Shown in pieces: positions 24,246 through 49,432 of a stretch of 64,000 bases of DNA. Made by a program: the position numbers and the translations under genes. Each line of letters starts with the position of its first letter. Position 1 is the stretch's first letter. Origin of the DNA: an uncultured Spirochaetia bacterium (GTDB lineage Bacteria > Oederibacteriota > PGYV01); the NCBI GenBank assembly GCA_964417645.1, contig CAYQIS010000002.1, forward strand, positions 130,583 to 194,582, given 5' to 3'. The notes beneath the pieces were generated by a model. It did not search any database, was not told the DNA's origin, and worked only from the letters and a program-made list of their open reading frames with translations.

Positions 24246-27200
24246 GTGAGATTTAACGTAAAAGCGATTTTATTATCCGCAATAGCGTTTCTTTTTTCGC
24301 TCATTATATATGCGGATACCTGTAATATGCCGTTCCCCCAGGCGGAAACATATCCTTATGGGTTAAAGCCCAATAATTATACCCAGGCACAAATGAACGC
24401 CCATTGTCAGGCATGGTTTGACAAGTGGCGCGCTAAATATCTTACACAAACCAATTGCGCTCCCGGCGAATGGAGAGTTCAAAGGACAGAGACAGGAAAC
24501 TCCATTCACAAAGGGTGCCCTGAAAATGATACGGTAAGCGAAGGCATAGGATATGGCATGTTAATCTGCGCATATATGTCCTCGGTCACAAACAACACAA
24601 AGCAGTATTTTGACGGCTTATGGAATTATTATAAAAATCATCTTGACGGCAACGGCCTTATGAACTGGCAGATACCATACTGCGACAGCGGAGGGGCGGC
24701 AACAGATGCGGATCAGGACGTTGTGTAGGCGCTGATTGTGGCGGACAAGCAGTGGGGAAGCGCCGGCGCAATAAATTATCGCAACGAAGCAATAGCGCTT
24801 GCCGCAAAGGTGCTTCAGCATGAAGTTACGGCATCAAATGATATAAGGCCGGGTGACGGATGGGACGGAGGCAATCCTTCTTACTTTGCCCCTTACACTT
24901 ACAGGATGATAGGTGATTATACCGGAGTTACAAGATGGTACAGTGTGGCAAGCAGAACATATAACACAATTGTCAAATATTATTATACATCATCTTTAAC
25001 CTATGACAGCACACTTAAAATGTACACAGGAATGCAGCCAAACTGGTGCAATTATGACGGAAGCCCGTGGAGCCCAGGGGCGTGGTGCATGAGGGCCGAC
25101 ACATGGTGGTGGGACGCAATACGACATGCCTGGAGGCAGGGTTATGATTATGTTTTATACGGAAGATTAAACAGCGGATATGCCCAGGATAATTCGTTCA
25201 GAATATCAGAATATTTTAAGACAAAGTATAACGGCAATCCCGCTCTTATAAAATCACATTATGAGTTAAACGGAACGGAAACATATTATTGCAGGGGAGA
25301 CAGGACGCCGGATCTTTGCACGGAAGATGTAAAAAACCTGCCGGGTCCTGTTGGTGCGATTGCTGTTGCCGCTATGGCGGGAGAGGATCAGAATTGGCTT
25401 AACGCCCTGTATGACAGGCTTGTTAATATGGATGCAGGAAACGGGCCGGGTGAACTTACTGAAACCGGCGTTATGTGGGGAACGGATTATTTTTGTGACA
25501 TATTAAAAATGCAGTATCTTCTTATTTTAACCGGGAATATGCCAAATCCTCTGGGCAATTATCCCACACCCACGCCTACCAATACATGGAATCCTTTAAC
25601 GCCCACGCCGACACCCGTGCCTCCGGGATTGTTTGATGATTTTGAAACAGGCGCGCTGATGAATCCTGACACATCGGAATCAGGCGGAGGTTCAACCGCC
25701 ACAATAACAAATACAACCGCTGACAAATACGAAGGGGCAAGGTCAATGCGCGTTGACACAACAGGAACGGGCTGGGCTTTGCTTTCGATTGATTCGCCCT
25801 ATGACGGCGGAATCGGTTATAGGAATTTTACCGGCGCAACTGCGCTTACCTTCTATATTAAAGCGCCGGCAAACACCGGGTTTTTCATTCAGCTTACCGA
25901 GGCAATGTCAGGCGGAGGTGACGGCGAAAGGTTCAGCAACAGGAGCACAGGGTTTACGGCAAACGGTTCGTGGCAGTTAATATCCATAAATCTTTCTTCG
26001 CTTACGCGTGACCAGTACACGCCGGCTTACGGCGACAATATTCTTGATATACAGGCGATAAAGTCTTTTGTTGTACAGTTTGACAATCCCGGCACAAAAA
26101 CAATATATATAGACAGAATAATGTTTACCGGAAATTTCCCCACAAGCACGCCTACTTACACAAATACAAACACAAGAACCCCTGCGCTTACTTACACTTT
26201 CACTTCAACGGCAACGTTTACAAGAACCCCCACACAGACAGACACGGTAAACCCGCTTTGGACTCACACTTATACTTTTACAAGCACCAATACGGCAACA
26301 AACACAAACACATATACGGCAACACATACTGCAACGGCAACGCCTTCCGTGATATCTCCGCCGTCGGCCGGAGTTTTTGATGACGCCGAAACAGGCGCGC
26401 TTAAAAATCTTACAATAAACGGAACCGCTGTTTCCGCCGTTGTAAATTCATCCGCGGCCGCACATGCCGGAACAAGGTCCATAAGGGTTACAACAATAAC
26501 AAGCGGCGCATGGGGGGGCTTTACGATTGAATCTCCGTATGTTGCCGGAAGTTACGGTGATTATACCGGCGCAACAGCTTTGAATTTCTGGATTAACGCT
26601 CCCGCGAATTCGGGCAATTTTTTCATAAAAGTTATTGAATATAATGCCGGAGGAAGCGGCGAAGAATATTCAAATCGCGGCGCACAGATAACGCCCACAG
26701 GAACGTGGCAGAACGTAAATATTTTACTTTCTTCTCTTACGAAAGATCAGTACTCGCCCGCGGGAGACGGAAGCAACACGCTGAATTTAAACAAAATACA
26801 ATACGTAATGTTTCAGTGGGATTCTTCAACCGCGGCAACGATATACATTGACGACATAAAATTCGCCGGAATGGCCACATTTACGCCCACAGGCACTTCA
26901 ACCTCAACATACACATATACAAGAACACAAACCGCAACTTCCACTTATTCGGCCACTGCAACATACACATTTACGGCCACCCATACAAATACCGCAACCG
27001 CAACTTATACATCAACAGTTGTTCCTTCAAATACAAGCAGTAATACGGCAAACTATACTGCGACAGGCACCAATACCACCACTCCTTTGCCTTCAAACAC
27101 AAACACAGCAACGCATACTGCAACGGCAACAGGCACGCCTGCATATACAAGTACATACACTTATACGGCAAGCGTAACAAATACCAATACGGCAACATAC

Positions 27201-28028
27201 ACGCCAAGCAATACTGTTACAGGCACCCAGCCCGCAACAAGCACTTTTACGTCCACACATACCGCAAGCTCAACTTATACCCATACAAGGACTTTTACCG
27301 AAACCCAAACTTACACCAATACATTTACTCCTGTATTCACGGATACCGTTACATTGACATTCACATCAACCAACACAGCAAGTTTTACATATACTCCAAG
27401 CAATACGGTTACGCCCGGCGGCCCGACTTTTACCCATACAAACACATTTACGAACACAAACACATTTACGCCAACTTTTACCGCCAGCAGCACATATACC
27501 GCGGCTTTTACCAACACTCCGTCTTATACAAGCACGCCTGTTCCGCCTACACTTACAAATACCGCAACATCCACACATACAAACACCTTTACCAATACAT
27601 TTACCCGGACTTACACTCAAACAGCTGTATTTACGGCAACCAATTCATTTACCCAAATGCCCACTCAGACATATACCAATACACCTGTGGTACAGCAAAG
27701 CAATGAGCAAAAGGCGGAAGTAAAACTGATATATCCGATGCCTTATGATCCGCTAAAAGGCAAACCTCTGTACATTCAATACATGGCAGGCAAAAGCCAT
27801 TCAGGCGTGCGTTTTATGGTTTATTCCTCAAGTTTCAGGCTTATCAGGGAAGTTATATTTGAAAGCAACCTTCCCCCAGGGTTAAATACACTTTCTGTTC
27901 TCCCTCAAAATTTTGAGGGGCTTGCAAACGGCACATATTATTATTTGTTAACTGTTGAAAATGACAATAACGAAAAATCACGGGCAAAAGTTGACAAACT
28001 TATAATTCTTAAAAGTAAAAAAGATTGA
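24246..28028 (+). CDS. secreted GH8 family glycoside hydrolase with two CBM-like modules, alternating-Thr linker and C-terminal sorting domain; interrupted by one in-frame TAG (24726-24728)
   Basis: GTG 24246 with RBS GGAAGGTG, then a signal peptide. GH8 motifs span the TAG (..GAATDADQDVV*ALIVADKQWG..). ORFs 24189-24728 and 24738-28028 are in the same frame. Two FDD(F/A)E...IYIDxIxF modules, a linker of about 270 aa, and a variant C-terminal domain (LIYPMPYD...FMVYSSSFRLIREV...GTYYYLL). Confidence 0.75.
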
Positions 28029-28053: not shown

Positions 28054-28082
28054 TTGCGTTAAAACGTTTTAAATGATATAAA
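28054..28082 (+). promoter_or_regulatory. sigma-70-like promoter of the lacI-GH30 operon with a perfect 14-bp palindrome TTAAAACGTTTTAA (28059-28072) and a second palindrome TAAACGTTTA (28089-28098)
   Basis: TTGCGT-17 nt-TATAAA. The palindrome spans the -35 3' end and the spacer. The AAAACGTTTT core matches the LacI/PurR-family operator archetype. Confidence 0.55.
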
Positions 28083-28115
28083 TTTAGGTAAACGTTTAAC
28101 TAAAAACGGGTGAAT

Positions 28116-29057
28116 ATGAAAAGAGCAACAATAAAAGATATAGCAAAAGCAGCCGGTGTTTCTTTTGTGACGGTATCAAAGGTTTTAAATAATACCGGGT
28201 CAATATCAAAAAAAACATCGGATAAAATAAGAAGACTGGCCAGGGAAATGAATTACATCCCTGATAATGCGGCGCGGGCGCTTGCAAAAGGAAGGCCTGA
28301 TTCAATTGCGATTGTCACGCCAAGTTTTACAACCGGCTTTATGCAGCAGCTTTTTATGGGCATTCAGGAAGAGATGCTGGGGTCTGACAAGGATGTTAAT
28401 TTTCATATTTCCGGAATGTCCGGCGAAGACATAGAAAAATCGCTGAATGTTATCAAGCACGGCAAAAAAGCGGGATCCATAATTGTTATTTCACAGCAGC
28501 CTGATGCGGCGCAGATTGACGGCTTGGTAAAAGCGGGAATACGCGTTGTGCTTGTTGAAGGCAAGCATCCAAAAGCCGTGATGATAAGCGCTGACAATGA
28601 AAACGGGGCAATACTTGCGGCAAGGCGTATGGTTGAAACAGGGGTAAAAAAACCGGGCCTTATTATAGGCGATGTAAAAATGATAAATTCACAGAAAGAA
28701 AGACTTGCGGGATTTAAAAAAATATTTGGAAATAAATTCAGCATTTATGAATTAAGGGAGCATTCATTTAATGACGGAATTAAAGCTTTCAGATATCTTT
28801 CGAATGAAGGTGTTGACTCTGTGTTCTGCGCGGCGGGAGACCTTGTTGCGTACGGTTTCTTATTTGAAGCCGGCAGATATAACAGCAGGATAAAGATAAT
28901 AGGTTTTGATGATGATCAGCTATCCGAAGGTATGGGGCTTACAACGGTAAAACAGGATGTCAAAGGAATGGGAGCGGCGGCATTTAGGGCGGCTGCAAAC
29001 GGTCCTGACTTCGGTGTAATAAATTTTAAAACAGAATTGATTGTAAGGAGGACATAA
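28116..29057 (+). CDS. LacI family transcriptional regulator
   Basis: N-terminal HTH MKRATIKDIAKAAGVSFVTVSKVLNN plus a periplasmic-binding-protein-type ligand domain. The stop directly abuts the ATG of the GH30 gene. Confidence 0.85.
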   Translation: MKRATIKDIAKAAGVSFVTVSKVLNNTGSISKKTSDKIRRLAREMNYIPDNAARALAKGRPDSIAIVTPSFTTGFMQQLFMGIQEEMLGSDKDVNFHISGMSGEDIEKSLNVIKHGKKAGSIIVISQQPDAAQIDGLVKAGIRVVLVEGKHPKAVMISADNENGAILAARRMVETGVKKPGLIIGDVKMINSQKERLAGFKKIFGNKFSIYELREHSFNDGIKAFRYLSNEGVDSVFCAAGDLVAYGFLFEAGRYNSRIKIIGFDDDQLSEGMGLTTVKQDVKGMGAAAFRAAANGPDFGVINFKTELIVRRT

Positions 29058-32021
29058 ATGATTAAAAAGATAACCGGATTTATTGTTCTTTTTGCCGCGT
29101 TTTTTTCCGCGGTATATGCCGCTGACTGCAATATATACGGGTTAACGGACAAGCAGTATATAAGGGGCTTTGGCGCCTCATCCGCATGGAGCGACTGGGG
29201 AGGAAATTCGGCGGGAAATACATGGCTTGTGTCACATGCCGATGAGTTTTTCACAACAACAAGCGGCATAGGGCTTACAATAATAAGGGCGAGGATAAAT
29301 CCCGTCCAAAGCGAATGGGGAAATACGGCTCCGCCTTTGCAGGCCGCACGTGACAGGGGCGCAACGGAAATATTTGCAACTGCCTGGACTCCTCCCGCGC
29401 AGTGGAAAAGCAATAATGCGGTTGACAACCAAAACGGAGGATACCTTCTGCCGCAGTATTATCAAAATTATGCAAATTATCTGAGGGATTATGTAATATA
29501 TATGAGGGATCAAAAACAGGTTAATATAACGGCAATATCACCCGCAAATGAACCTGATTACCGTGTAAGCTATGACGGATGCGACTGGACAGGCGAACAG
29601 CTGCGTGATTTTGTAAAAGGATATCTGGGGCCTACTTTTCAGGCCGCGGGGCTGACAACAAAAATAATTATAGGAGAATCTTTTGCGAATAATTGCGCTT
29701 ATGTAAACCCCACGGTGCTTGATTCCGTTGCAAGAGGTTTTCTTTTTGCCGGGGCCACGCATTTTTACGGGGGAGGACCTTATGACTGCCCAAATCTTGG
29801 TACTTACGGCAAGGAATTCTGGCAGACTGAAAAATCCAATTTCACAGCTTATGACGGCAGCATTACCCACGGCCTTATAACCGCCGAGTGGATTCACAGC
29901 GGGTTTGTGACCGGAAATTACAATGTTTTCCTTTATTGGTGGCTTGCTTCGGATCAGACAAACGAGGGTTTGACTTCGGTTACCCTTGGCACTCCAAAAA
30001 GATATTATACATTCGGAAACTTCAGTAAATTTGTAAGGCCCGGCTATTACAGAATAGACGCAACAGCGGCGCCCACAACAAATGTTTTGGTTACAGCCTA
30101 CAGGTCGGGGGACAGATCAAAATATGTGATTGTTGCAATAAACAAAAATACATCCGCGACTTCGCAAAAGTTTGTGTTAAACAACATTCCTGACGGAACA
30201 TACAATGTTTATGTCACATCTTCAACACAAAATCTTGCACAGGTTTCCAATATCAACGTAACGGGAGGCAGTTTTACATACAGCCTGCCCGCTCAAAGCG
30301 TTGTGTCTTTTGTGTCGCTTGGCGGGCCGACGCCAACGCCGACTTTCACGGTTACAGGAACGCCGCCTACCAATACTCCCACATCAACGGCAACCCCGCT
30401 TCCGGCGTCAATTTTATTTGATGATTTTGAGGATTTAAATTATAAAAATAACTTTAACGGCGACAATTACAAATATAACGGCAACAATTCAAATAATTTT
30501 GCAATGCAGTTTCTGCAGCCGGGCGCCGCATCAACCGGCAATTATATAAGGATTACGGGAACAGTTGCGGATTACGGCGGTTTTGGAATGAACTTTGCGG
30601 CTTCAGGAGCTGCTGATTTGTCCGCTTATCAGGGGATTGAATTCTATATTAAAGGAAGCGGAACATACTGGCTTCAGTTCACCCAGGATTCAATAACGGA
30701 TTATGACTATCATGGAATTGTTGTTACCGCCACATCAACTTGGACAAAAGTGACAGTTTTATTCAGCCAGCTTGCGCAGAAGAACGGCACAAATCCTGTT
30801 GCATTTACAAAAAACGCGCTTAATGCGGTGCAGTGGGCAAGCAACGGCAACGGCGCTTTTGACCTTCAGCTTGACGAAATAAGGCTTTTATACAACAGCA
30901 GCATAACGCCAACTTATACGAATACAATCCCTCCTCCGACAAACACCGCAACAAGGACGTTTACCAACACTTATACGGCAACATACACAAATACGCCGAC
31001 ATTTACCAATACGCCCGTACCCCCAACTTCAACAAATACAAGCACATATACGGCAACAGCAACAAACACCGCAACAAGGACATTTACCAATACCGCAACA
31101 AACACGCCGGTGCCTCCGACATCAACAAACACAAATACTTCCGTGCCTGCAACATCAACACACACCAACACTCAGGTTCCGCCGACTTTAACAAACACAA
31201 GTACAAACACATCGACGGCAACTTATACATACACGATAACTTATACGCCAAGCGAGACGGTTACAACAGGCGGACCCACGCTTACATTTACACAGACTTA
31301 TACAAATACGTATACGGCGACTCATACTGCCACAAACACTTATACAGATATCCCCACAAGCACGCCGACCAATGCGCCGCCGACATCAACTCACACCTCA
31401 ACAGCAACCGCAATTATTCCAACTTCAACAAACACAACCGTGTCTACAAGCACGTATACGCCTGTTAATACGGCAACATTTACACATACAAGCACGAACA
31501 CTTATACAAACACGCCCGTACCGCCGACTGCAACAAACACAGCGTCAAATACAAGCACGCGCACATACACTCAGACACCGACAAACACAATGACACGCAC
31601 GCCCACATATACATTTACCCAAACGTACACATACACGCACACGGAAACAATTGTTCCTTCGTTTACCAATACGCATACATTTACAGCAACAATAACGCCT
31701 ACTCCCACGCCGTCTGATGCAAAAGAGCAGGAGATAAAAGACATACTGCTGTATCCGCATCCGTATGATGCGGCAAAAGACAATTTAAAAATTATGTATA
31801 CAATAACAAAGAGGGCGCAGTCTGTTAAACTTTTGATATATTCATCGGCTTTCCGCCTGATACGCGAGGTTGAAATAGGCAGGGCGCTGTATGCAGGCAC
31901 GCATATCGGGGAGGTAAAGGCTTCACAGATAAGGCAGCTTGCAAACGGAACATATTATTTTGTGGTTAAGGATAATGAAGGCAAAAGGTCAAAAGCCGAT
32001 AAATTGATTGTCTTAAAATAA
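29058..32021 (+). CDS. secreted GH30 (subfamily 8-like glucuronoxylanase) with CBM-like module, alternating-Thr linker and C-terminal sorting domain
   Basis: Signal peptide. XynC-like motifs ([16 protein letters not shown] acid/base, FWQTE nucleophile). PT-linker, an FDDFEDL...LQLDEIRL module, about 265 aa of TxT repeats, and a C-terminal domain (ILLYPHPYD...[14 protein letters not shown]...GTYYFVV...KLIVLK). Confidence 0.75.
31240..32021 (+). repeat. 3' linker plus C-terminal-domain cassette, copy 1 (shared by five CAZyme genes)
   Basis: Roughly 650 bp are nearly identical at nucleotide level to 35770-36441. The cassette begins near the conserved island [16 protein letters not shown]. Confidence 0.8.
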
Positions 32022-32046
32022 CTTTTAACGTTTTAAATTCATTAAA

Positions 32047-32094: not shown

Positions 32095-35000
32095 ATGAAA
32101 AAGATCCTTTTTTTGTGTTTGACGATGCACCTTGCCTTTACGCTGCATGCGGCAAGGTACATGGAAAAGCTGGACAGGGGAGTTGTTGCTGTGCGCACGG
32201 GCACAAACAATGTGTATGTCGGATGGCGCATGTTTGCAACAGACCCTCAGGATGTTTCATTTAATGTTTACAGAAGCGGAGTAAAGGCAAACGCAACTCC
32301 GATAACCAATTCAACCAATTTTAACGACGTAACGACGGTTAACGGTACATATACCGTAAGGCCGATAATCGGAGGGATTGAACAGGCGGATTCTGAAACA
32401 GCCACGGTGTGGCCGCAGTTTTACATGACAATCCCTATGACCCCGCCTGATATGCTTACAATGCCTGACGGCGTCACCTGCACTTACAGCGCAAATGACT
32501 GTTCTGCGGCTGATTTGGACGGCGACGGCAAGTATGAAATAATAGTGAAATGGGATCCGTCCAATTCAAAGGACAATTCACAAGCCGGTTATACAGGCAA
32601 TGTATATCTTGACGCTTACAAGTTAAACGGCACCAGGCTTTGGAGAATAGACCTTGGAATTAATATCCGCGCCGGCGCCCACTATACGCAGTTTATGGTT
32701 TATGATTTAAACTCTGACGGCAAAGCGGAACTTGCATGCAAGACCGCGCCCGGTACAAAAGATTCATCAGGCGCGTATTTAAGCAGCGGGCCGGCTGCGT
32801 CTGACAATGACCAGGCTGATTACAGGAATTCAAGCGGATATATACTGTCAGGACCGGAATACCTGACTGTTTTTAACGGAGAAACAGGCCGCGAGATTAC
32901 AACAATAAATTATAATCCTCCGCGCGGTACAGTTTCTTCCTGGGGCGACAATTACGGAAACCGCGTTGACAGGTTTCTTGCGTGCATTGCCTATCTTGAC
33001 GGGGTTCATCCCAGTTTGGTCATGTGCCGCGGTTATTATACACGGGCGGTTTTGGTTGCATATGATTTTAACGGGACTGCGTTAAGCCAGCGCTGGATAT
33101 TTGATTCCAATTCGCCCGGTAACAGCGCTTATGCGGGCCAGGGAAACCATAATTTAAGCGTGGGGGATGTTGATAATGACGGCAGGGATGAAATAATATA
33201 CGGAAGCTGCGCAATTGATGACAACGGAACAGGTTTATATTCAACAGGCCTTGGCCACGGAGACGCCAACCATCTTGGCAACATGGACCCTGACAGGCCG
33301 GGACTTGAATACTTTCAGCCGCACGAGGAATATCCGCTTTCCGCCGGCGCTGAATACAGAGACCCTGCAACAGGAGCGCTTTTATGGGGATATCCTTCAA
33401 CTGCTGATGTGGGGCGCGGGCTTGCGGCCGACATAGACGGAAATTACAGGGGCTGGGAAATGTGGGCGTCTAATACGGACGGTATTTATAATGTAAAAGG
33501 AACAAGAATTTCAACTACAAAGCCTTCAATTAATTTCAGGATTTACTGGGACGGGGATCTATTGGATGAACTTCTTGACGGAACCAAACTTGACAAATGG
33601 AACGGAAACGGAACGACAAGACTTGTGACGATTTATAATTATGCGGGCGCAACGGAAAACAACGGCACAAAGGCAAATCCCGGATTAACCGCTGACTTGC
33701 TGGGCGACTGGCGTGAAGAAATGGTTTACAGAAATTCAACAAGCACCAATCTGATCATTTTTACCACAACAACACTTACAAATTACAGGTTCTATACATT
33801 TATGCATGACTTTCAATACCGTGTTTCCGTGGCCTGGCAGAATGTGGCTTATAATCAGCCCCCTCATGTGTCTTTTTATCTGGCCGACGGACCTTCCGCC
33901 CAGCCCGCGGGAAACATTATTTATCCTGCTTTAGGTGCAACCGCAACCCACACAGCCACACGCACCAATACCGCAACAAATACTCCCTCATTTACGTTTA
34001 CCGCAACAAGGACATTTACACACACACAAACACCCACTGCGACCGTAATTGCATCGGTAAATACGGATTTAATTGCAGGCTTTGCCACGCAAAACGGCGG
34101 CACAACAGGCGGTGCCGGCGGCCCGGAAGTGACAGTTACAAATCTTACTGACTTCATAACTTATGTGACAGATGATAATCCAAGGATAATAAAAGTTAAC
34201 GGTGAACTAAACAGCGGAGATGACAAGGGCAAGTCAGTGCGCGTGGGCTCCAATAAAAGCATAATTGGATGCGGTGCGGGCGCGTTTTTTAACGGTGTGG
34301 GTTTAATGATAAGCAATGACAGCAATATAATAATAAGAAACTGCAAATTTACACTGACTTCAATTACAAATACCACAGACCCCGCGGTATATGACCCGGA
34401 CGGGGATGAAGGCAGGCCGCAGATAATAGTAAACGGCGGGGACTGTATCAGCATTCAGAATACCAGCACAAATATATGGATAGATCATTGTGAGTTCTAT
34501 CAGGTTGACCCTGCCGTACAGACAAACCAGGATTTATATGACGGCCTTATTGACATAAAAAACAATTCAGATTACATAACCATATCATGGTGCTGTTTCC
34601 ATGACCATCATAAATGCCATTTAGTCGGAAGTTCAGATACTGATAACTATGACAGAAAGACCACCTTTCACCATAACTACTACAACAATATAAAAGAAAG
34701 AATGCCCAGCTACCGTTTTGGTACAGGGCATGTGTTTAATAATTATTATAACAGGGTATTAAGTTCTGCGGTAAATACAAGAATGGAAGCCGTGCTGCGT
34801 GTTGAGAACAATTATTTTGAAAATTCAATTGACTGCATAGTGGCAAAAAACAGCTTATTAAACGGTTTTTGGGATTTAAGAAGCGGCATAACAGGGCTTG
34901 ATAATTCAAATTTATATGTCTCCTGTTCGGGCAGCCAGCCGACCGTGTCAAACGGCACTTTTAACCCTTCTTATTCATATGCCGCAGTGCTTGAAGCGGC

Positions 35001-39775: not shown

Positions 39776-42688
39776 ATGATAAAACAAACTACTAAAGCAT
39801 TTTCGTTAAAAATTTTTAACTTTTTTTGTATTTCCATACTTTTATTATCAACTAATCTTTTTGCAGATATGATTTATGACGGGGATACGGCAGGATATCG
39901 GCTGTCGGACGGAACGGTAATAAACGGCTCGCCGGGCACCATGACCGAAACAACAGGCGGAAATCCCGGAAATCTTATGCGTCTTACATACACTTCCATA
40001 TCAAGCTGGTGGCAGGAACACAGGTGGGATAAAACAGTTAATATACCGTTTGGAGCAAACACTCATTTAAGATTCAATGTAAGACGCGCTCCCACAAGTC
40101 CGGGCACTGTAAGCGTTTTTCGTGTAAGAATAGATTACAACGGAAATTATGTTGATGTTGCAAATTATCTTTTGGAAGGCGGTTCAATTGACTCCACTTG
40201 GAAAACAGCCAATATACCTTTGGCTGATATAAAAGGCCCATCTCAGACACAGATAGATTTCATTAATTTTATAGCAAACTGGAATTCTGATTACACTGTT
40301 GATATTGATAACATTTCAATTGAAGGCGCTTATACTCCCACATATACATATACCGTAAACCCTTTGTTTACGGCAACATACACTCCAACCCCCGCGCCAA
40401 CGTCTGCAGGCATGCCGCGCATATCAATCAACGGCACGGAATTCAGGGCATGCGGCCAGAGAATCTGGATGTGCGGCGCCAACACGCCGTGGGATAATTG
40501 GAATGATTTTGGCGGGAATTATGACCCTGACTTTTGGAACACTCATTACGCTCAATTTAATGCTTACGGGCTTAATTCCTCACGCGTCTGGATAACCTGT
40601 TCGGGCGAAGTGGGAATCAACATAGATACAGCAGGATATGTATCAGGCGCAACCGCCGCGCACTGGGCGAACCTGGATGATTTTTTTGCAAAAGCCCAGG
40701 CAAAAGGCGTTTACATTAAAGCAACCCTTATTTCATTTGACCATTTTAAAAGTTCGTATACAACATATCAGCGCTGGAGAAACTGGATAAATTCCGACGC
40801 CAATATTGATTCTTACATAAACAATTATCTTATTCCTTTTGTTAACAGGTACAAGAACAATACCGCCCTTTGGTGCATTGACATGACAAATGAACCCGAG
40901 TGGGCAACAACATCGGAAGGCGGAACAATAACATGGGACAGGTTCCAGAAATTCTGGGCAAAGGCCGCAAAGGCAATACATGATAACAGCGAAATACTTG
41001 TAACAGTTGGAATTGGTGTAATTAAATATAACAGCGACAATCCGGGAATGAACGGCAATAAGGTAAGCGATGCGGCCCTTCAGGCGCAGCTTAATGATCC
41101 AAAGGCAAAACTGGATTTTTATTCGCCCCATTGGTATTCGTGGATGGATCCTTACTGGACTATATTGATGTATACAACGCCTTCTTCTTTTGGAATAGGG
41201 ACAAAGCCGTGTATTGTGGGCGAAGCGCCGGGAACAGCTTCAACAGGGCACACGCTTGCCCAGGATTATGAAGCGGCTTATACCAACGGCTGGCAGGGTT
41301 TTATGCCGTGGACTTCAAACGGTGTTGACAATTTTGGCAACTGGAGCAATGTTTCGCCGGCTTCCAATTCTTTTAAAAACAATCACTATAATCTTGTGTT
41401 CCCGCCATGCTCAACATCAACCCCCACAAATACAGGAACATATACAAAAACAAGCACTCCTGTGCCGCCAACGGCAACCAACACTTCAACCAATACAAAC
41501 ACTGCAACATTTACTTTTACGGCAACAGGCACAAATACTGCTGTTCCCACAAATACAAGCACTCGTACAAACACCAACACCGCAACATACACTTATACTG
41601 CAACATTAACTCCTGTGAATACAAACACCTTAACCGCGACAAATACAGCTGTGCCTTCCACATACACTTTTACCGCCACAAATACCGCCACGTCAACCGC
41701 AACCCACACGGCGGTTAACACAAGCACCAATACAAGTGTTCCTTCGGCAACGTTTACCAATACTTCAATAAATACGCCGGTAAACACCGCAACAGGCACT
41801 TTTACAAGCACATACACTTTCACATACACATTAACGCATACTTCAACACACACAAACACATCAACGGCAAATTATACTTACACGGTTACCTATACCCCCA
41901 GCGAAACAGTCACAACGGGCGGGCCAACGCTTACATTTACGCACACATTTACGCAGACTTATACAAGCACAAGCACATATACGGCAGCATCAACTGCAAC
42001 AAGCACTTATACAAATGTTCCCACAGACACAGCAACCAATATTCCCGCAACATCAACATACACCTCAACAGCAACCGCAATTATTCCAACTTCAACAAAC
42101 ACAAGCGTGTTCACAAATACGCATACGCCTGTTAATACGGCAACATTTACACATACAGGCACAAACACTTATACAAACACGCCGGTGCCGCCGACAGCAA
42201 CAAGTACAGCGTCAAATACAAGCACGCGCACATACACGCATACGCTGACAAACACAATGACACGAACACCTACGCATACATTTACCAATACGTATACATA
42301 CACGCACACGGAAACCGCAGTTCCTTCGTTTGCCAATACTTATACATTTACAGCAACAATAACGCCTACTCCGACGCCGTCTGATTCAAAAGAGCAGGAA
42401 ATAAAGGACATATTGCTGTATCCGAACCCGTATGATGCAAAGAACGGGAATTTAAAGATAAAGTACACGATAACAAAAAGGGCGCAGACAGTTAAGCTTT
42501 TGATATATTCATCGGCGTTTCGCCTGATACGCGAGATTGAAATAGGCAGGGAAATGCATGCGGGAACGCGTATCGGAGAAGTAAAGGCTTCACAGATAAA
42601 AACGCTTGCAAACGGAACATATTATTTTGTTATTACGGAAAGCGAAGGAAAAAGGTCAAAAGCGGATGAAATAATAATATTAAAATAA
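39776..42688 (+). CDS. secreted GH5 family glycoside hydrolase (clan GH-A, mannanase/glucanase-like) with N-terminal CBM-like module, about 330-aa alternating-Thr linker and C-terminal sorting domain
   Basis: Signal peptide from ATG 39776. Beta-sandwich module, then a TIM-barrel region with a NEPEW acid/base motif and a ...GEAPG nucleophile region. Long TxT linker and C-terminal domain. Confidence 0.7.
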   Translation: MIKQTTKAFSLKIFNFFCISILLLSTNLFADMIYDGDTAGYRLSDGTVINGSPGTMTETTGGNPGNLMRLTYTSISSWWQEHRWDKTVNIPFGANTHLRFNVRRAPTSPGTVSVFRVRIDYNGNYVDVANYLLEGGSIDSTWKTANIPLADIKGPSQTQIDFINFIANWNSDYTVDIDNISIEGAYTPTYTYTVNPLFTATYTPTPAPTSAGMPRISINGTEFRACGQRIWMCGANTPWDNWNDFGGNYDPDFWNTHYAQFNAYGLNSSRVWITCSGEVGINIDTAGYVSGATAAHWANLDDFFAKAQAKGVYIKATLISFDHFKSSYTTYQRWRNWINSDANIDSYINNYLIPFVNRYKNNTALWCIDMTNEPEWATTSEGGTITWDRFQKFWAKAAKAIHDNSEILVTVGIGVIKYNSDNPGMNGNKVSDAALQAQLNDPKAKLDFYSPHWYSWMDPYWTILMYTTPSSFGIGTKPCIVGEAPGTASTGHTLAQDYEAAYTNGWQGFMPWTSNGVDNFGNWSNVSPASNSFKNNHYNLVFPPCSTSTPTNTGTYTKTSTPVPPTATNTSTNTNTATFTFTATGTNTAVPTNTSTRTNTNTATYTYTATLTPVNTNTLTATNTAVPSTYTFTATNTATSTATHTAVNTSTNTSVPSATFTNTSINTPVNTATGTFTSTYTFTYTLTHTSTHTNTSTANYTYTVTYTPSETVTTGGPTLTFTHTFTQTYTSTSTYTAASTATSTYTNVPTDTATNIPATSTYTSTATAIIPTSTNTSVFTNTHTPVNTATFTHTGTNTYTNTPVPPTATSTASNTSTRTYTHTLTNTMTRTPTHTFTNTYTYTHTETAVPSFANTYTFTATITPTPTPSDSKEQEIKDILLYPNPYDAKNGNLKIKYTITKRAQTVKLLIYSSAFRLIREIEIGREMHAGTRIGEVKASQIKTLANGTYYFVITESEGKRSKADEIIILK
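41690..42688 (+). repeat. 3' linker plus C-terminal-domain cassette, copy 4 (extended about 1 kb of similarity with 48497-49432)
   Basis: Near-identical stretches, e.g. AACCCACACGGCGGTTAACACAAGCACCAATACAAGTGTTCCTTCGGCAACGTTTAC, are shared with the beta-helix gene. Confidence 0.7.
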
Positions 42689-42751: not shown

Positions 42752-43780
42752 TTGAAGCCGACCACAATAAAAGACATAGCAAGAAGACTTGATCTTAGTT
42801 TTACGACGGTATCAAGGGCCCTTAATAATGACATCAAAATTAAGCTTTCAACAAGGGAATTGGTAAAGAAAACGGCCGAAGAAATGAATTATTTCCCGAA
42901 TATGGCGGCCAGGGGTCTTGTAAGACGAAAATCCGAAACAATAGCGTTTATGAGCACCCGTTTTGCCGCACCTTTTATTTCAAATGTACTTGATGCTTTT
43001 GAACAAAAAGCATTTTATACCGGAAGATATGTGCACGGGATTATTCCTTATTCAACAAGAAACGAGGAAGCTGTTAAAGAAATGCTTTTAAAGCGCATTT
43101 TAAGGGGAAGGATGGCGGATGCTCTTGTTATGCTGTCGCAAAGACCTTCGGAAAAAATATTGGAAGAGTTTAACATGGCCGGAGTTCCTGTTTTGTTGAT
43201 AGAAAATAGAATGCCCGGCGCACACTCCATAACCGTTGACAATGCCCACGGAGCGCGCTCCGCCGCGCAGTATCTTGTAAAAACCGGAAGAAAAAGAATA
43301 TGCCTGATAACCGGTGAAATAATACAGCCGCCAAGCAGGGATATAAACACGGCGGCCGTTGAAAGAAAAGAAGCTTTTGTGTCCGAGGTGCTTGAAAGCG
43401 GAATATTTTTTAATGAAAGCAACATAGAAACAATACATGCATATAAATATGAAGAAGGCATGACAGCTTTGGATAATTTTATAAAAAAAGGAATAAAACC
43501 TGACGCAATATTCTGCGCGGCGGGTGACATTGTTGCAATGGGAGTGCTGGAGCGTGCAAGAGAAAAAGGAATAAGCATTCCCGAAGACATGGCAATTATA
43601 GGATATGACGATATACTTTCAGCCAAAAATCTTAATCCTCCACTTACAACCATAAGACAGCCTCTTCATGAAATCGGGGAAATGGCTTTTGAGATGATTC
43701 TTGATGCGGTGGACGGAAAATTAAAAGAGACAAAAAATGTGGTAATTAAACCGGAATTAATAATACGCAAATCCGCGTGA
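42752..43780 (+). CDS. LacI family transcriptional regulator
   Basis: HTH (TIKDIARRLDLSFTTVSRALNN) plus a type-I PBP ligand-binding domain. Confidence 0.85.
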   Translation: MKPTTIKDIARRLDLSFTTVSRALNNDIKIKLSTRELVKKTAEEMNYFPNMAARGLVRRKSETIAFMSTRFAAPFISNVLDAFEQKAFYTGRYVHGIIPYSTRNEEAVKEMLLKRILRGRMADALVMLSQRPSEKILEEFNMAGVPVLLIENRMPGAHSITVDNAHGARSAAQYLVKTGRKRICLITGEIIQPPSRDINTAAVERKEAFVSEVLESGIFFNESNIETIHAYKYEEGMTALDNFIKKGIKPDAIFCAAGDIVAMGVLERAREKGISIPEDMAIIGYDDILSAKNLNPPLTTIRQPLHEIGEMAFEMILDAVDGKLKETKNVVIKPELIIRKSA

Positions 43781-44210: not shown

Positions 44211-44299
44211 AAATTTTCAAACACAACCTTACAAAATACTTCCAATTGACATTATTAAAAATTAATTTTATAATTGTTAAAGGATATAAGGAGGCTGTG

Positions 44300-45169
44300 A
44301 TGAGCGAAATAGACCACAGAAACGCCACAATTGCATTTGTCAGCCCGCGATTTACATCCCCTTTTATGATAGAAATCCTTACGGCCGCCGAGGAAGAAGC
44401 ATATAAAAGCGAGAGATTCCGCGGGGGAATTCTTCCTTTTTCAACATGGAACATAGACAGCGAACGCGACAGGATACTTCATTCCCTGATTGATGAAAAA
44501 AAAGCAGACGCAATTGTATTGATAACCACATGGCCTGTTCCGGGTTTTGTTGAAGCGTGCGCGCAAAAAAATATTCCTTTGATTGTGGTTGAATACAGCA
44601 TAAACGGTGTTTTTTCGATAATGAATGACAATTTTACGGGCGGATATATCGCCGGCGAATATCTTTCGCAAAAATATGGCGAGGATACAGTTATAGTAAA
44701 CGGCCTTACATCGCATGAAAAAGGCAAGGACATACATCCGGCGGCAATTGACCGTCTTAAAGGTTTTAAGGTGGCTTTTTCCAATTTTGGATTCCAGCCT
44801 GAATCAATAAAAAACATAAATGTGCTTGCATATACAAGGCAGGAAGGTTCTGAGATAATGCGCAGTCTTGCCCGTGAAACAAAGATGCCCCGTTCGGTGT
44901 TTTGCGCGGCGGGAGATGAAACGGCAATAGGCATAATTGAAGCCGCATTAAAGCTTGGATTAAAAGTTCCTGAAGATATTGCAATAATGGGCTATGACGA
45001 CATAGAAGCCGCCGGTTTGATGAAACCGGGATTAACCACAATAAGGCAGCCGCTTGCGGAAATAGGAAGGATTGCATTTGAAGCGGCTTCGAAAATGGCG
45101 GACGGGGAATCTGTTGAAAAGGGGGTTGTTACTGTAAAACCTGAACTTATAGTGCGAGAATCAGCATAA
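44300..45169 (+). CDS. LacI-type ligand-binding-domain protein lacking the N-terminal HTH (HTH-less LacI paralog)
   Basis: Clear homology to the sugar-binding core of the 42752 regulator (IAFVSPRFTSPFM.. versus IAFMSTRFAAPFI..; shared C-terminal YDDI..A and TTIRQPL motifs). Begins at ATG 44300 with RBS AAGGAGG. No signal peptide and no HTH. Confidence 0.75.
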   Translation: MSEIDHRNATIAFVSPRFTSPFMIEILTAAEEEAYKSERFRGGILPFSTWNIDSERDRILHSLIDEKKADAIVLITTWPVPGFVEACAQKNIPLIVVEYSINGVFSIMNDNFTGGYIAGEYLSQKYGEDTVIVNGLTSHEKGKDIHPAAIDRLKGFKVAFSNFGFQPESIKNINVLAYTRQEGSEIMRSLARETKMPRSVFCAAGDETAIGIIEAALKLGLKVPEDIAIMGYDDIEAAGLMKPGLTTIRQPLAEIGRIAFEAASKMADGESVEKGVVTVKPELIVRESA

Positions 45170-46149: not shown

Positions 46150-46178
46150 TTGTTATGTTTGATAAAATATGTTATAAT
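46150..46178 (+). promoter_or_regulatory. sigma-70-like promoter of the beta-helix CAZyme gene
   Basis: TTGTTA-17 nt-TATAAT, then RBS AAGGGAG and GTG 46208. Confidence 0.5.
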
Positions 46179-46207
46179 TATTGTAATAAAACCAAAGGGA
46201 GTAATGA

Positions 46208-49200
46208 GTGAGAAAAAACATTTATTTTATTTTTGTTTTCTTACAATTTTTTTATTCCTTAATATACGGCTGGGAATCACAGCTTTTTCCTTTTAATTCG
46301 GTAACAGGAAAATATCAGGAAGCTGTTGTGAATTTTAACGGAAGAAACTGGAAGCTTCTTGATTACTCATACACAGGATATAATCTTGGAAATACGGGTT
46401 TAAGAAAAAACATACCCTGCAATATACAGACAATTACGGGTTCAGGAGACATAACAGCTGAACTTCAGACAAAAATTGACGCGGTTGGCGCGGCAGGAGG
46501 GGGAATAGTAAGGATACCTGCAGGAACATTTACGATAACAGAGCACACTCTTCACGGCGGATTAAAGCCAATCGGCATTAATTATCCAAATGTATCAATA
46601 GAAGGGGCCGGAAGCGGCAGGACAATAATAAATGTTCCGCCAACCCACACTTACAGCAGCGATGCAAACGCTTTTGAAGGCGTGTTTACTTTTGAAAAAT
46701 CAAGATGGGCGTGGAACAAGGGCTGGGTTGACAGGGGAACCGTGCTTTCCGGAATTACCCAGCCGATAGCTGAAGGGGCAACGTATTTGACCGGTGTCAC
46801 CAATCTTGCGGGTATAGCGGTTAATGACTGGATAATTATATAGCAGTACTGGTGGCAGACTTTTTCCCAGCAGAATTCTGCCGGAGTGTGGCAGTATTAT
46901 CCGCCCAACACAAACAGGGAAACAAATTTTGTGTATTTAAGAAAAGTAATTGCAAAGGACGCTGGCGGAATAACGATTGACGCGCCTATCCCTTTTTACC
47001 TTGACCCCGCAAACAATCCCATAACAATAAGAAGAAGCGGCCCCGATACCACATCTTATCAGATGCTTGAAAATGTGGGCATATCGGGGCTGACCATACA
47101 GTTTCAGGACGTAAATATAGGAGCAACAGGCAGGCCGGAAGGCGCGGGTATTGTTATGGAAGGCGTTGTGAACGGCTGGGTGTATGACGTTCATGTAAAA
47201 AACTTTCCGCGATACGGTTTTTATTTTGAATATGACGCGCGTCTTTCTTTTGTAAATTGCGTGGCCAAAAAAACCCAGGATTACGGGGGGGACGGTTACG
47301 GATACGGTTATCATAATTATGCATCGCAGAATGTCCTGATAAAAAACTGTTATGCCGAAGACGTAAGGCACGCTTATATATTCCAAAAGCCCCTTGCCAA
47401 TTACTGCGCCGTTGTTGATTCCGATTCAATTGACTGCCGCCAGGGAGAAGACACGCATCATTCTTTCTGCCATGCCATTTTGCGGGACAATGTGCGCCAC
47501 AGCCACGGCAACAAGATGGTTGGTTATAACAGGGGAACAACCAGCACAAATGCTTACGAAACTTACGGTACGGGAGTAAATTGGAATGTGACGGGTGACG
47601 GCATTGGGGGTGTGTGGGAAAGCGCGATTTTCTCAATGAATCCTGCGCCGTATCCCGCTCTTTACACGCACGGAATCATGGTCGGGGGGCCGGGTTTATA
47701 CAGGGTGTTTGACAACGGTTCTCACATAAGCGGAACCTATGTTGAAGGCGATCAGATTTTTCCGTCCCCCGGATTTCAGGTTGGGATTAGTGGGGATAAA
47801 AATATGCTGTATGAAGGGCTGGGACAAACAGGCCTTATGCCTTACTCGCTTTATAACACACAGCTTTCAAACAGGCTGGGTACGGTTCCTGCCGTATGGG
47901 ACAATACCTGCGGCGATGCGCCCGCATTGCCTGCGGCAACACCGACCCCTGCTTTGTCAGGAGAACTAATATTTGACAGCGAATACGCTGCATGGGGTTT
48001 CAGCTTCGGAAGCTCCTGCCCGCTGCCTTTAAACACACTGACACCGGGCACCAATCCCGATGATATGGGGCAGGTTCACAGCGGTATTGAGGCAATGCGT
48101 GTTGATGTAAGCGCGGGAAGCAACTGGACGCCCATGTTCGTGTTCGGGGGGCCGGACCTTAAGGCAACGGATTTTACAAATATAGAGTTTTGGATATATC
48201 CAACAAACACAGCCATGCAGTGTTATGTAAATTTGATGGATGATGATGCGGGAACATCGCTTGGAAGCACGGTTACATTAAGCGGCAGCTATGCCCAGGG
48301 AGGCGCTTTTATTGCCAATACATGGAATAAAGTTACCATACCTCTTACCGCATTTGCTTATTCAGGCACATTCAGCGGAATCCGTTTTTCGCGAACGGGC
48401 ACAGCGCCGGGAACTTTTTATCTTGACGATATGTATCTTACAGGGGGCGCACCAACCGCCACACCCACAAACACAAGCACCCAGACCGCAACAAATACCG
48501 CAACCCACACGGCGGTTAACACAAGCACCAATACAAGTGTTCCTTCGGCAACGTTTACGAATACTTCAACAAATACACCCGCAAACACCGCAACAGGCAC
48601 TTTTACAAACACATACACTTCCACATACACATTAACGCATACGTCAACACACACAAACACATCAACGGCAACATATACTTACACGGTTACCCATACCCCC
48701 AGCGAAACAGTCACAACGGGCGGGCCAACGCTTACTTTCACGTACACATTTACAAACACTTATACAAGCACAAGCACGCATACTGCAACATCAACATACA
48801 CCTCAACAGCAACCGCAATTATTCCAACTTCAACAAATACAAGCGTGTTTACAAGCACGCACACCCCTGTTAATACGGCAACATACACACATACAAGCAC
48901 AAATACTTATACAAATACGCCCGTGCCGCCGACTGCAACAAATACCGCGTCAAATACAAGCACGCGCACATACACGCAAACAACGACAAACACAATGACA
49001 CGCACGCCCACATATACAGTCACAAATACGTATACATACACGCACACGGAAACCGCAGTTCCTTCGTTTGCCAATACTTATACATTTACAGCAACAATAA
49101 CGCCTACCCCGATAACGCCTGATACAAAAGAGCAGGAAATAAAGGATATATTACTGTATCCGAATCCTTATGACGGTAAGAACCAAAATTTAAAGGTAAG

Positions 49201-49432
49201 TTACACAATAACAAAGAGTGCAACATCAATAAGGTTCAGGATATATTCATCGGCGTTCAGATTGATACAGGAAACTGAAATAGGCAGGGCATTGCATGCA
49301 GGGATACATACGGGAGAAGTGAATGCATCACAGCTTAAGCTTCTTGCAAATGGAACATATTACTTTGTAATTACGGACAATGAAGGTGCAAGGTCTAAGG
49401 CGGACAAATTTATTATAATTAAATTTCACTAA
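46208..49432 (+). CDS. secreted right-handed beta-helix protein (pectate-lyase-superfamily / GH28-GH55-like) with CBM-like module, alternating-Thr linker and C-terminal sorting domain; interrupted by one in-frame TAG (46841-46843)
   Basis: N-terminal [35 protein letters not shown] is the signature opening of Pectate_lyase_3-type beta-helix enzymes. ORFs 46208-46843 and 46886-49432 are in the same frame. [11 protein letters not shown]...[10 protein letters not shown] module, TxT linker and C-terminal domain follow. Confidence 0.7.
48497..49432 (+). repeat. 3' linker plus C-terminal-domain cassette, copy 5
   Basis: See copy 4. The C-terminal domain here is more diverged (..[18 protein letters not shown]..). 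Confidence 0.7.

Follow-up and report, generated by a model that had tools for sequence, protein, structure and literature searches.

The closest described counterparts of the proteins analysed here are the T9SS type A cargo proteins of the Fibrobacteres-Chlorobi-Bacteroidetes (FCB) group, such as the Cytophaga hutchinsonii and Fibrobacter CAZymes with PF18962/TIGR04183 domains and PorU, PorZ and the gingipains of P. gingivalis. Like our proteins, they combine a Sec signal peptide with a single C-terminal seven-strand beta-sandwich of ~80-100 aa, which likewise occurs on homologous catalytic domains, in the same position, and on both CAZymes and proteases. To our knowledge, T9SS has been described for the FCB group only, and Candidatus Goldbacteria, the host of the present locus, lies outside it. 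In gene organization, the Caldicellulosiruptor glucan degradation locus, with CBM3 and linkers in common, and dockerin-bearing cellulosomal clusters are comparable. These are likewise clusters of modular CAZymes with unrelated catalytic domains, with linkers and non-catalytic modules at high DNA identity, and the near-identity of the non-catalytic modules is attributed to recombination and domain shuffling. The FlgD Ig-like (PF13860) proteins belong to the same fold class as the C-terminal domain studied here. For the same phylum, Doud et al. 2020 (PMC7031533) described a cellulolytic repertoire with GH5, GH8, GH44 and many CBM11, the same enzyme families as in our locus; linker, C-terminal domain, threonine and secretion route are unmentioned in the full text of that paper.

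A polysaccharide-degradation gene array in Goldbacteria

In the 64-kb stretch of DNA that we analysed (the window), an uncultured Candidatus Goldbacteria bacterium (Goldiibacteriota) encodes an array of genes for polysaccharide degradation. The proteins of the window are themselves singletons from one 196-kb NCBI contig, and the host was recognized from their orthologue clusters and from the named CTD family members (see below). The six plus-strand genes of the array, g1 to g6, have N-terminal catalytic parts unrelated to each other and a common layout, consisting of a Sec signal peptide, catalytic domain(s), CBM-like module(s), a Thr-X-Thr linker and a C-terminal domain (CTD) of ~100 aa (Table 1). 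The original prediction of six genes with unrelated catalytic domains and the same tail was thus borne out, as linker and CTD were found in 6/6. The signal peptides were judged by inspecting the N-termini.

Table 1. Positions of the genes and sequence features of the array in the window
Feature	Position	Strand	Description
g1	24246-28028	+	signal peptide, GH8, two CBM-like beta-sandwich modules, Thr-rich linker 26856-27692, divergent CTD 27693-28025
candidate LacI operator	28059-28072	.	palindrome TTAAAACGTTTTAA; half-sites 24156-24165, 24198-24207, 32027-32036 related
LacI-family regulator	28110-29057	+	HTH and sugar-binding domain; Pfam LacI 63.5 bits, Peripla_BP_4; ends one base before g2 start
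g2	29058-32021	+	signal peptide, GH30 (XynC-like), CBM11/CIA30-like module, Thr-rich linker 30894-31730, CTD 31731-32018
CBM11/CIA30-like module, copy 1	g2 30417-30863	+	447 nt, 90.6% nt identity to copy 2
shared 3' cassette (distal linker + CTD), reference copy	g2 31203-32021	+	blastn, mosaic identity profile, runs and PHI tests
g3	32095-36441	+	signal peptide, PL11 rhamnogalacturonan lyase, PL1 pectate lyase, further module, Thr-rich linker 35593-36150, CTD 36151-36438
g4	36523-39678	+	signal peptide, GH44, CBM11/CIA30-like module, Thr-rich linker 38722-39387, CTD 39388-39675
CBM11/CIA30-like module, copy 2	g4 38254-38700	+	pair of copy 1
g5	39776-42688	+	signal peptide, N-terminal CBM-like module, GH5 beta-mannanase-like domain, Thr-rich linker 41393-42397, CTD 42398-42685
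LacI-family regulator, second full-length	42752-43780	+	Pfam LacI 48.9 bits, Peripla_BP_3 119 bits
g6	46208-49432	+	signal peptide, beta-helix protein without assigned activity, CBM-like module, Thr-rich linker 48428-49141, CTD 49142-49429
shared 3' cassette, other copies	g3 35741-36441; g4 38792-39678; g5 41696-42688; g6 48497-49432	+	blastn

The catalytic assignments rest on Pfam matches for g1 (Glyco_hydro_8, 52 bits, on 24246-24728), g3 (RGL11_C, 777 bits; RGI_lyase; Pectate_lyase_4, 132 bits) and g4 (Glyco_hydro_44, 193.6 bits), and on Pfam GH30_2 (46.8 bits) together with NCBIfam XynC (208.9 bits, below the XynC cut-off) for g2. The GH5 domain of g5, which from its start codon is identical to the database protein P0003, was recognized by PDB sequence matches to the GH5 mannanases 5y6t (5.8e-24) and 2c0h (2.3e-21). 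The beta-helix call of g6 is sub-threshold (Pfam Beta_helix, 21.3 bits), and the protein is 57% identical to the Goldiibacteriota protein family P0093. A Pfam search gave no match to dockerin (PF00404), cohesin or CBM3 in any of the six proteins. The absence of SusC/SusD genes had been taken to set the locus apart from a canonical Bacteroidetes polysaccharide utilisation locus. Indeed, neither a SusC-like TonB-dependent transporter nor a SusD-like lipoprotein was found among the Pfam and NCBIfam matches of the window genes, but the Bacteroidetes frame was not supported, and in a Candidatus Goldbacteria host this absence is expected and unremarkable. Scanning a genome collection (GTDB representatives) gave one locus, at 33% identity; exact look-ups of g4 and g2 located no contig, and only that of the enolase gene yielded two short Logan contigs.

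Two of the six genes contain an in-frame TAG codon, g1 at 24726-24728, within the GH8 signature, and g6 at 46841-46843. Reassignment of TAG was considered and rejected, as TAG terminates seven other window ORFs and the aligned residues differ, being Phe in the homologues of g1 and Gln in the P0093 family; tRNA genes were absent from the window.

Besides the two full-length LacI genes, the array holds two LacI-like genes without a helix-turn-helix (HTH). The sequence AACGTTTWAA has five matches in the window, all intergenic and upstream of g1, lacI/g2 and g3, where 1.4 would be expected for the whole window; five were reached in 2/100 shuffles. A LacI gene also lies directly upstream of the GH30 gene in L004, a syntenic relative with orthologous GH8, GH5, GH30 and GH44 genes. 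LacI control of the array is plausible, judging from the LacI and LacI-like genes and the intergenic motif.

Tails of the six genes

The Thr-rich linkers of the six genes span 186-335 aa and contain 40-42% Thr. By blastn, the tails of g2-g6 are DNA repeats of 0.6-1.0 kb with 77-94% identity, confirming the five repeats of 0.7-1.0 kb noticed originally, and their CTDs share 71-96% aa identity. The tail of g1 belongs to the same family and lies outside the DNA repeat; its CTD, picked up by the CTD family profile, is 43-46% identical in aa sequence to those of g2-g6. The similarity of the tails is not a low-complexity artefact, because the g1 linker, of equal composition, is only ~63% identical to the other linkers, and because the cassette homology ends precisely at the stop codons. 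A tandem-repeat search of the linkers yielded three weak arrays only, and the linkers are thus not simple DNA tandem repeats. The contig comes from a metagenome assembly, and mis-assembly is in principle conceivable for tracts identical over 250 nt.

The copies in g2 and g3 had been described as differing by a few bases. In fact, 44/683 positions differ (31326-32008 vs 35746-36428, 93.6% identity), but a 250-nt tract is free of differences, synonymous ones included. Likewise, the supposedly near-identical copies in g5 and g6 (41696-42686 vs 48497-49424) are 81% identical overall, and reach 90-100% in the first ~250 nt, in the upstream linker, and in two short tracts, against 70-80% in the CTD. 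Between cassette copies, dS ranges over 0.14-0.32 for the linker and 0.22-1.5 for the CTD, with dN/dS well under 1 in both; between the CTD of g6 and the others it reaches 1.0-1.5, so that homogenisation has been uneven.

In an AF2 prediction of linker plus CTD, made from a shallow alignment of five sequences, the linker had a pLDDT of ~30 and a folded beta-solenoid was unsupported. On this model, the linker is probably an extended stalk, which may be glycosylated.

Concerted evolution of the tails and CBM modules

Comparison of the window with L004 by blastn aligned the catalytic parts at 71-75% DNA identity, whereas tail-to-tail DNA alignment was not detected. At the protein level, the CTDs of orthologues in the window and its relatives share 43-52% identity, against 59-82% for the catalytic domains. 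With L004 as the outgroup locus, the tails and CBM modules sort by genome and not by enzyme. The CBM modules of g2 and g4 are 92% identical in aa sequence to each other and 54-58% identical to the corresponding L004 modules, which in turn share 93% aa and 86.7% DNA identity. The exchange pattern suspected for the CBM-like module was thereby recovered. Furthermore, the L004 GH5 and GH30 tails share 83% DNA identity, and together with the CBM value this indicates that the same process has been independently at work there. The locus L005, from a second sample, is identical to L004 and yields the same tail pattern, so that a strain-level comparison of the two is uninformative; L001 displays the pattern too.

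The identity profile across the five tails is a mosaic of 100%-identical tracts, in which the nearest partner switches between segments. In a Sawyer-type runs test, g2 and g3 have 70 consecutive polymorphic sites in common (global P<0.0002), and the g4-g5 and g5-g6 tracts gave pairwise P values of 0.002 and 0.0002, respectively; the PHI test on the tails gave P=0.001. Thus, paralogous segments are closer within a genome than orthologues are between genomes, the flanking parts follow orthology, and the mosaic tracts have different partners. The grouping by genome and the significant runs and PHI tests support concerted evolution by repeated gene conversion as the source of the within-genome likeness of tails and CBM modules, in agreement with the cassette exchange originally proposed. 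The conversion may be ongoing, as had also been claimed.

The comparisons thus show the mode of evolution of the array. Recurrent non-allelic gene conversion keeps the distal linker and CTD of five genes alike in this genome and, separately, homogenises the CBM module of two genes, while the catalytic parts evolve vertically. The exchanged tracts have their 3' limit at or before the stop codon, and 5' limits that vary within the linker.

Other origins of the pattern were weighed against this mechanism. A single recent burst of domain shuffling, in which one tail was grafted onto several genes soon after the L004 split and has simply diverged since, predicts grouping by genome as well. Shuffling does occur in this lineage, since orthologues differ in domain order (CBM-GH5 in g5 and GH5-CBM in P0007/L004; PL11-PL1-CBM in g3 and PL11-CBM-PL1 in P0010). 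However, the strongly heterogeneous divergence along the cassette, with the nearest partner changing by segment, makes one such burst improbable; the significant shared tracts and the PHI result require several exchanges of different ages, and L004 stands at the same 83-87% level for tail and CBM, as a steady state would give. We regard it as very improbable that the tails are collapsed or chimeric short-read products or mixed strains, with a mosaic that is not biological. The contig source is a metagenome assembly, two genes carry in-frame stop codons, and many CTD database matches are fragments of 95-150 aa, suggesting that assemblies often break at repeats. Nevertheless, the five cassettes are all distinct and in frame with homology ending at the stop codons, the gene order agrees with that of the independent locus L004, and the pattern recurs in L004 (= L005, two samples) and L001. 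Purifying selection and codon bias alone, without exchange between genes, would fit the low dN/dS, but has a negligible probability in view of the 250-nt tract with zero synonymous differences, the dS of 0.14-0.3 in a low-complexity linker, and L004 orthologous tails too diverged for DNA alignment beside alignable catalytic parts. Repeated non-allelic gene conversion of the tails and the CBM module, with vertically inherited catalytic parts and a CTD that probably serves as a sorting or anchoring tag, is, taken as a whole, the best explanation and a likely one.

Family and probable role of the C-terminal domain

A six-frame hmmsearch of the window detected exactly six CTD copies, every one at a gene end, 0-4 residues short of the stop codon, and one per protein with an N-terminal signal peptide. 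The AF2 model of the CTD (pLDDT 89) is a seven-strand beta-sandwich, for which the PorU CTD was the best structural match, and other T9SS CTDs matched this model too. Against curated HMMs, the window copies scored 15.9-20.3 bits for PF18962 (Por_Secre_tail; cut-off 27), 18.9 bits for TIGR04183 (cut-off 23) and 16.5-20.3 bits for FlgD_ig (PF13860; threshold 27; E about 6e-4, whole-domain), and their match to CHU_C was also below the curated threshold. All the HMM matches were to T9SS-CTD or FlgD_ig models, and each covered the whole domain. A word-index search with the CTD found no match, and a PDB sequence search with the CTD profile returned noise only (designed helical repeat proteins).

The CTD family was defined by an exhaustive profile search (profile A2), which gave 577 clusters at E<=1e-3. 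Among 20 family members, 5/20 matched PF18962 at E<0.01 (best 4.8e-8) and 6/20 matched TIGR04183 (best 1.4e-5), while the PorU C-terminus HMM reached a best E of 3.3e-9 among CTD family members. The retrieved proteins include 156 C-terminal copies, and in all but about 24 proteins the CTD is present once, at the very C-terminus; Thr makes up a median of 40% of the 200 aa preceding it. Proteases, including M6 metalloproteases, and DVUA0089 proteins are also members, so that Goldbacteria have the CTD on secreted proteins of many kinds. All members with both a source name and a full-length terminal CTD are from Goldbacteria, and the orthologue clusters are labelled 'Candidatus Goldbacteria/Goldiibacteriota'. 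At the position of this CTD, proteins homologous to the catalytic domain of g5 have PF18962 (Cytophaga, Fibrobacter-type and KSB1 proteins) or dockerin (Firmicutes).

The CTD also shares its motif order with T9SS type A CTDs, with YPNP near strand 1, IY..(G/F)R.I midway, then G.YY, and a last strand that is basic. It differs from them in that the window copies fall below the curated cut-offs, the domain is about 15-25 residues longer than the Pfam/TIGRFAM models (72-75 positions), it always follows a very long Thr-X-Thr linker, and its host is outside the FCB group. A window gene at 14153-15733 also encodes a Thr-rich linker and a C-terminal FlgD_ig domain, at a clear score of 37 bits; the CTD family profile misses the FlgD_ig domain of the VWA protein, which makes the two domains distinct classes. 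The CTD belongs with the T9SS type A CTD/FlgD-Ig fold group, as a divergent relative.

The tail had been called a secretion and anchoring module. This reading is partly supported by the closeness of the AF2 model to T9SS CTDs and by the HMM scores of other family members, although the window copies themselves are all sub-threshold. The CTD would most likely act as a sorting or cell-surface anchoring tag, and the enzymes, exported by way of their Sec signal peptide, may then be displayed at the cell surface, held at the tip of the Thr-X-Thr stalk. The window includes a TonB gene, which implies an outer membrane, and binding enzymes displayed at the surface would fit the finding that Goldbacteria cells were captured through their adhesion to cellulose particles (PMC7031533). 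No T9SS component was found among the annotated genes of the window, and we found no paper in which T9SS or this tail is connected with Goldbacteria or Elusimicrobia. In a tentative alternative, the CTD would be an Ig-like domain with a structural or binding role, its ligand being for example a polysaccharide or cell-envelope polymer, or an oligomerisation module, with export across the outer membrane by another route such as T2SS. The window copies indeed match FlgD_ig as well as T9SS-CTD models, the profile partially matches FlgD-Ig repeat proteins of Firmicutes, a group without T9SS, and Goldbacteria are beyond the known T9SS range. However, the single copy at the extreme C-terminus in most of the retrieved proteins, its presence on proteases and other non-CAZymes, the dedicated CBM-like modules that the proteins already have, and the fact that the top structural matches and all NCBIfam matches are T9SS CTDs argue against this alternative.

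Discussion

The array illustrates cleanly, in a phylum that has received little study, an evolutionary process already known. In contrast to the Caldicellulosiruptor and cellulosomal loci, the unit concerned, from a diderm candidate phylum, is a C-terminal sorting-like domain with a Thr-rich stalk; no dockerin, cohesin or CBM3 was detected in the six genes, and the concerted evolution of the unit is traced against an orthologous outgroup locus. The tail repeats fragment metagenome assemblies and sit below annotation thresholds; profile A2 could be used for predicting the Goldbacteria surface proteome.

More speculatively, Goldbacteria may display their secreted proteome (CAZymes, proteases and adhesin-like proteins) on Thr-X-Thr stalks of 200-300 aa via a CTD of their own, handled by a highly divergent T9SS-like machine not recognised to date or by a different, undescribed system for sorting and anchoring, with gene conversion keeping the tags of co-expressed enzymes matched to that machinery. 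If Goldbacteria have T9SS genes, the known T9SS range would grow; if not, T9SS-like CTDs would have a second use. The sorting-like tail, linker and binding module evolve in concert and the catalytic domains do not, which amounts to a natural 'plug-and-play' cassette, relevant to enzyme engineering and to the question of how modular CAZymes evolve. Finally, the locus offers a hypothesis for how a cellulolytic candidate phylum without a cultured member may hold its enzymes on the cell.

Architecture of the enzyme array

The six plus-strand secreted-enzyme genes (g1-g6) are listed in the table together with their regulators and other features of the window. All six open with a typical Sec signal peptide, as judged by inspection of the sequences, and end in a Thr-rich linker (186-335 aa, 40-42% Thr) followed by a C-terminal domain (CTD) of ~100 aa. 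A six-frame hmmsearch with a profile built on the CTD family detected exactly six copies in the 64 kb window, every one at a gene end. The array of six enzyme genes with a common tail, as the original prediction had described it, is thus real. For g6, a sequence search for a solved relative found none.

Features of the enzyme array and its surroundings (window positions)
Feature	Position	Strand	Description
Rhamnose genes	2750-7980		dTDP-rhamnose synthesis-like genes (rmlA, rmlC, rmlB, rmlD types), further epimerase/dehydratase, GT4 glycosyltransferase
VWA protein	14153-15733		VWA domain, 107 aa Thr-rich linker (43% Thr), FlgD_ig C-terminal domain (37 bits)
AACGTTTWAA sites	24156-24207, 28059-28100, 32027-36		intergenic
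g1	24246-28028	+	GH8, Pfam 52 bits over first 160 aa
TAG in g1	24726-24728	+	in frame
LacI	28110-29057		full-length; ends one base before g2 start
g2	29058-32021	+	GH30, XynC-like
g3	32095-36441	+	PL11 (777 bits) and PL1 (132 bits)
g4	36523-39678	+	GH44 (194 bits)
g5	39776-42688	+	no Pfam match; resembles solved GH5 beta-mannanases (5y6t at 5.8e-24)
LacI	42752-43780		full-length
LacI-like ORF	44246-45169		sugar-binding domain without N-terminal HTH
g6	46208-49432	+	weak beta-helix signal only
TAG in g6	46841-46843	+	in frame
LacI-like ORF	49495-50340		sugar-binding domain without N-terminal HTH

Both g1 and g6 contain a single in-frame TAG. That of g1 lies inside the GH8 signature, aligned with a Phe of the homologues and followed by 1096 open codons, and that of g6 is aligned with a Gln (CAG to TAG is one transition) and followed by 848 open codons; the sequence on both sides is conserved and open in both genes. 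Seven further ORFs of the window terminate in TAG, and no tRNA gene was found within the window. The two codons probably arose by nonsense mutation very recently, or reflect polymorphism among strains or errors in the sequence, and read-through is possible.

The linker yielded no confident predicted fold (pLDDT about 30, alignment of five sequences), and its DNA has little tandem-repeat structure. On the conventional reading, it would form an extended, possibly O-glycosylated stalk. The dTDP-rhamnose synthesis-like genes are located 16 kb upstream of the array; they may serve to glycosylate these stalks, or may only supply polysaccharide of the cell envelope.

Concerted evolution of the tails

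A blastn comparison among the genes revealed that the 3' cassettes (linker plus CTD) of g2-g6 are 77-94% identical, with 93.6% identity over 683 nt for g2/g3 (44 mismatches, no gaps), 88% for g3/g4, 86% for g3/g5, and about 81% over 890-990 nt for g4/g5, g4/g6 and g5/g6. The original prediction, in which the g2 and g3 copies differed by only a few bases and those of g5 and g6 were near-identical, therefore holds for sub-tracts and not overall: 250 nt of g2 and g3 lack any difference, and g5 and g6 are 90-100% identical at 41700-41950 / 48500-48750, with CTDs only 70-80% identical. The CBM-like modules of g2 and g4 share 90.6% identity over 447 nt. The g1 tail is a diverged family member, with 43-46% amino acid identity of its CTD to the others. 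Since its linker, which has the same composition, reaches only ~63% DNA identity, the low complexity of the Thr codons is not the source of the high identities. The homology of the cassettes extends no further than the stop codons; the sequences flanking them on the 3' side are unrelated.

As an outgroup, we used the orthologous array of a related genome (L004; JGI Ga0209717_1001508), reached via the profile search and a GH5 search, with a GC content of 47.5% versus 41.6% for the window and with GH8, GH5, LacI, GH30 and GH44 orthologues in a similar array. At the DNA level, the catalytic parts of the two loci align at 71-75%, whereas no pair gave a tail-to-tail alignment. In amino acid sequence, orthologues share 59-82% identity across their catalytic domains and only 43-52% across their CTDs, whereas paralogous CTDs share 71-96% within the window and 84% within L004; likewise, the CBM11-like module is 92-93% identical inside a genome and 54-58% across genomes. 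Within L004, identity is 83% between the GH5 and GH30 tails (621 nt) and 86.7% between the GH30 and GH44 CBMs (540 nt), and therefore the two lineages each keep their own tails and CBMs at similar identity. Vertical inheritance of the tails was excluded, because tails and CBMs are alike within genomes and not across them. Such likeness is what repeated gene conversion would predict, and concerted evolution of both the tail and the CBM is well supported.

The cassettes were further subjected to mosaic tests on a 600-nt gapless block common to all five, with 161 polymorphic sites. A Sawyer-type runs test detected 70 consecutive shared sites in g2-g3 (global P<0.0002), 22 in g4-g5 (pairwise P 0.002) and 13 in g5-g6 (pairwise P 0.0002), and a PHI-type test on the five cassettes gave P=0.001. 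Over the final 300 nt of the linker, all pairs have a synonymous divergence of 0.14-0.32, and in the CTD the values range from 0.22 (g2-g3) up to about 1.5 (g2-g6); in the identity profile, the closest partner of a cassette shifts along its length. Taken together, these signals require several exchanges of different age and extent, and fit poorly with one graft of the tail after which the copies diverged in a clock-like manner. Another explanation is misassembly, since the contig derives from a metagenome, in the assembly of which such repeats can be joined wrongly. However, each of the five cassettes has its own sequence and lies in frame, the gene order of L004 agrees with that of the window, L004 was recovered identically in two samples, and the locus of a third lineage (L001; CALAOR010000008.1, GC 48%) has the same architecture, with five consecutive CAZyme genes with Thr-rich linkers, four of which end in the same CTD family. 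The predicted gene conversion or cassette exchange of the tail and the CBM-like module was thus supported by the outgroup comparison and by the runs and PHI-type tests. In addition to being converted, whole modules are being shuffled.

Several differences in module content were observed among the loci. The order is CBM-GH5 in g5 and GH5-CBM in its relatives (P0007 and L004 3284-6187), and PL11-PL1-CBM-like in g3 and PL11-CBM-like-PL1 in its relative P0010. In L004, the GH30 orthologue is longer by an insert of ~380 aa and by a second CBM, and the GH44 orthologue carries an added GH16. In L001 (76-2931 and 5305-7713), the first gene ends in a different domain, FlgD-Ig-like by eye, and two of the genes have in common an internal module of ~125 aa, whose translations look identical by eye.

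Identity of the C-terminal domain

When scanned alone, the window CTDs matched no models other than Por_Secre_tail, CHU_C and FlgD_ig. These matches covered the whole domain, with E-values of 1e-2 to 8e-5, and all fell under the 27-bit thresholds. In the wider family (n=20), Por_Secre_tail matched five members (best 4.8e-8), FlgD_ig eight and CHU_C five, and the NCBIfam models for the PorU C-terminus, TIGR04183 and the PorZ C-terminus matched nine (best 3.3e-9), six and five, respectively. An exhaustive profile search with the CTD returned 577 clusters at E<=1e-3; the fetched proteins included 156 with the CTD at the very C-terminus, preceded by 200 aa with 40% Thr at the median. Partial, multi-copy matches were more distant relatives, the FlgD-Ig repeat proteins of Firmicutes such as Acetivibrio cellulolyticus. 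A large share of the matches are fragments of 95-160 aa, hardly more than the CTD itself (e.g. P0009, P0014, P0027 and P0038). It appears that the repeated linker and tail often interrupt metagenome assemblies, and that full-length entries for these proteins are therefore under-represented.

Homologues of the g5 catalytic domain among Cytophaga, Fibrobacter-type and KSB1 proteins carry the T9SS sorting domain PF18962, and those of Firmicutes a dockerin, where Goldbacteria have the CTD. Judging from these sequences, the CTD occupies a location where sorting or anchoring modules sit and would work like one of them, and we read it as a divergent member of the wider T9SS type A CTD / FlgD-Ig relationship that is specific to Goldbacteria; the window copies stay below the thresholds for membership in TIGR04183/PF18962. 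The proposed secretion and anchoring role agrees with the position and structure of the domain, and may reasonably be inferred from this supportive structure and the sub-threshold matches.

A seventh secreted protein, absent from the list in the original prediction, contains a VWA domain. Its clearly scoring FlgD_ig domain also matches the PorU and PorZ C-termini and was undetected by the profile of the six CTDs. Its design is that of g1-g6, but with a tail of a different class.

Regulatory genes and candidate operators

The GH30 gene of L004, like that of the window, follows a LacI gene. The last LacI-like ORF starts only 62 nt past the end of g6, a gap too short to encode an HTH, and both HTH-less ORFs may be truncated remnants or ligand-binding-only paralogues. 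The motif AACGTTTWAA has five matches in the window, all intergenic and upstream of g1, lacI/g2 and g3, against 1.4 expected; five were reached in 2 of 100 shuffles. One match is part of a perfect palindrome, TTAAAACGTTTTAA, at 28059. These half-sites and the palindrome are plausible candidate LacI operators.

Host and significance

The window proteins are singletons, all of them from a single NCBI contig of 195,982 bp. Their orthologue clusters are labelled Candidatus Goldbacteria / Goldiibacteriota (PKL92874.1, HRQ44610.1 and others), and the named members with a complete C-terminal CTD, including a GH44, an M6 metalloprotease and a DVUA0089 protein, are all Goldbacteria. The earlier Bacteroidetes framing was accordingly wrong, and comparison with a Bacteroidetes polysaccharide utilisation locus is therefore not applicable. 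The window encodes TonB, in keeping with an outer membrane. Doud et al. 2020 (PMC7031533) demonstrated that cells of Goldbacteria stick to cellulose and recorded GH5, GH8, GH9, GH44 and CBM11 in large numbers; linkers, C-terminal domains, threonine and secretion routes all go unmentioned in the text of that study.

The pattern fits known kinds, namely loci whose modular CAZymes share non-catalytic modules, and surface enzymes tagged with a CTD; what is new here is the variant of these patterns and the phylum in which it occurs. The finding would gain interest if Goldbacteria have a T9SS, or if they use the CTD without one.
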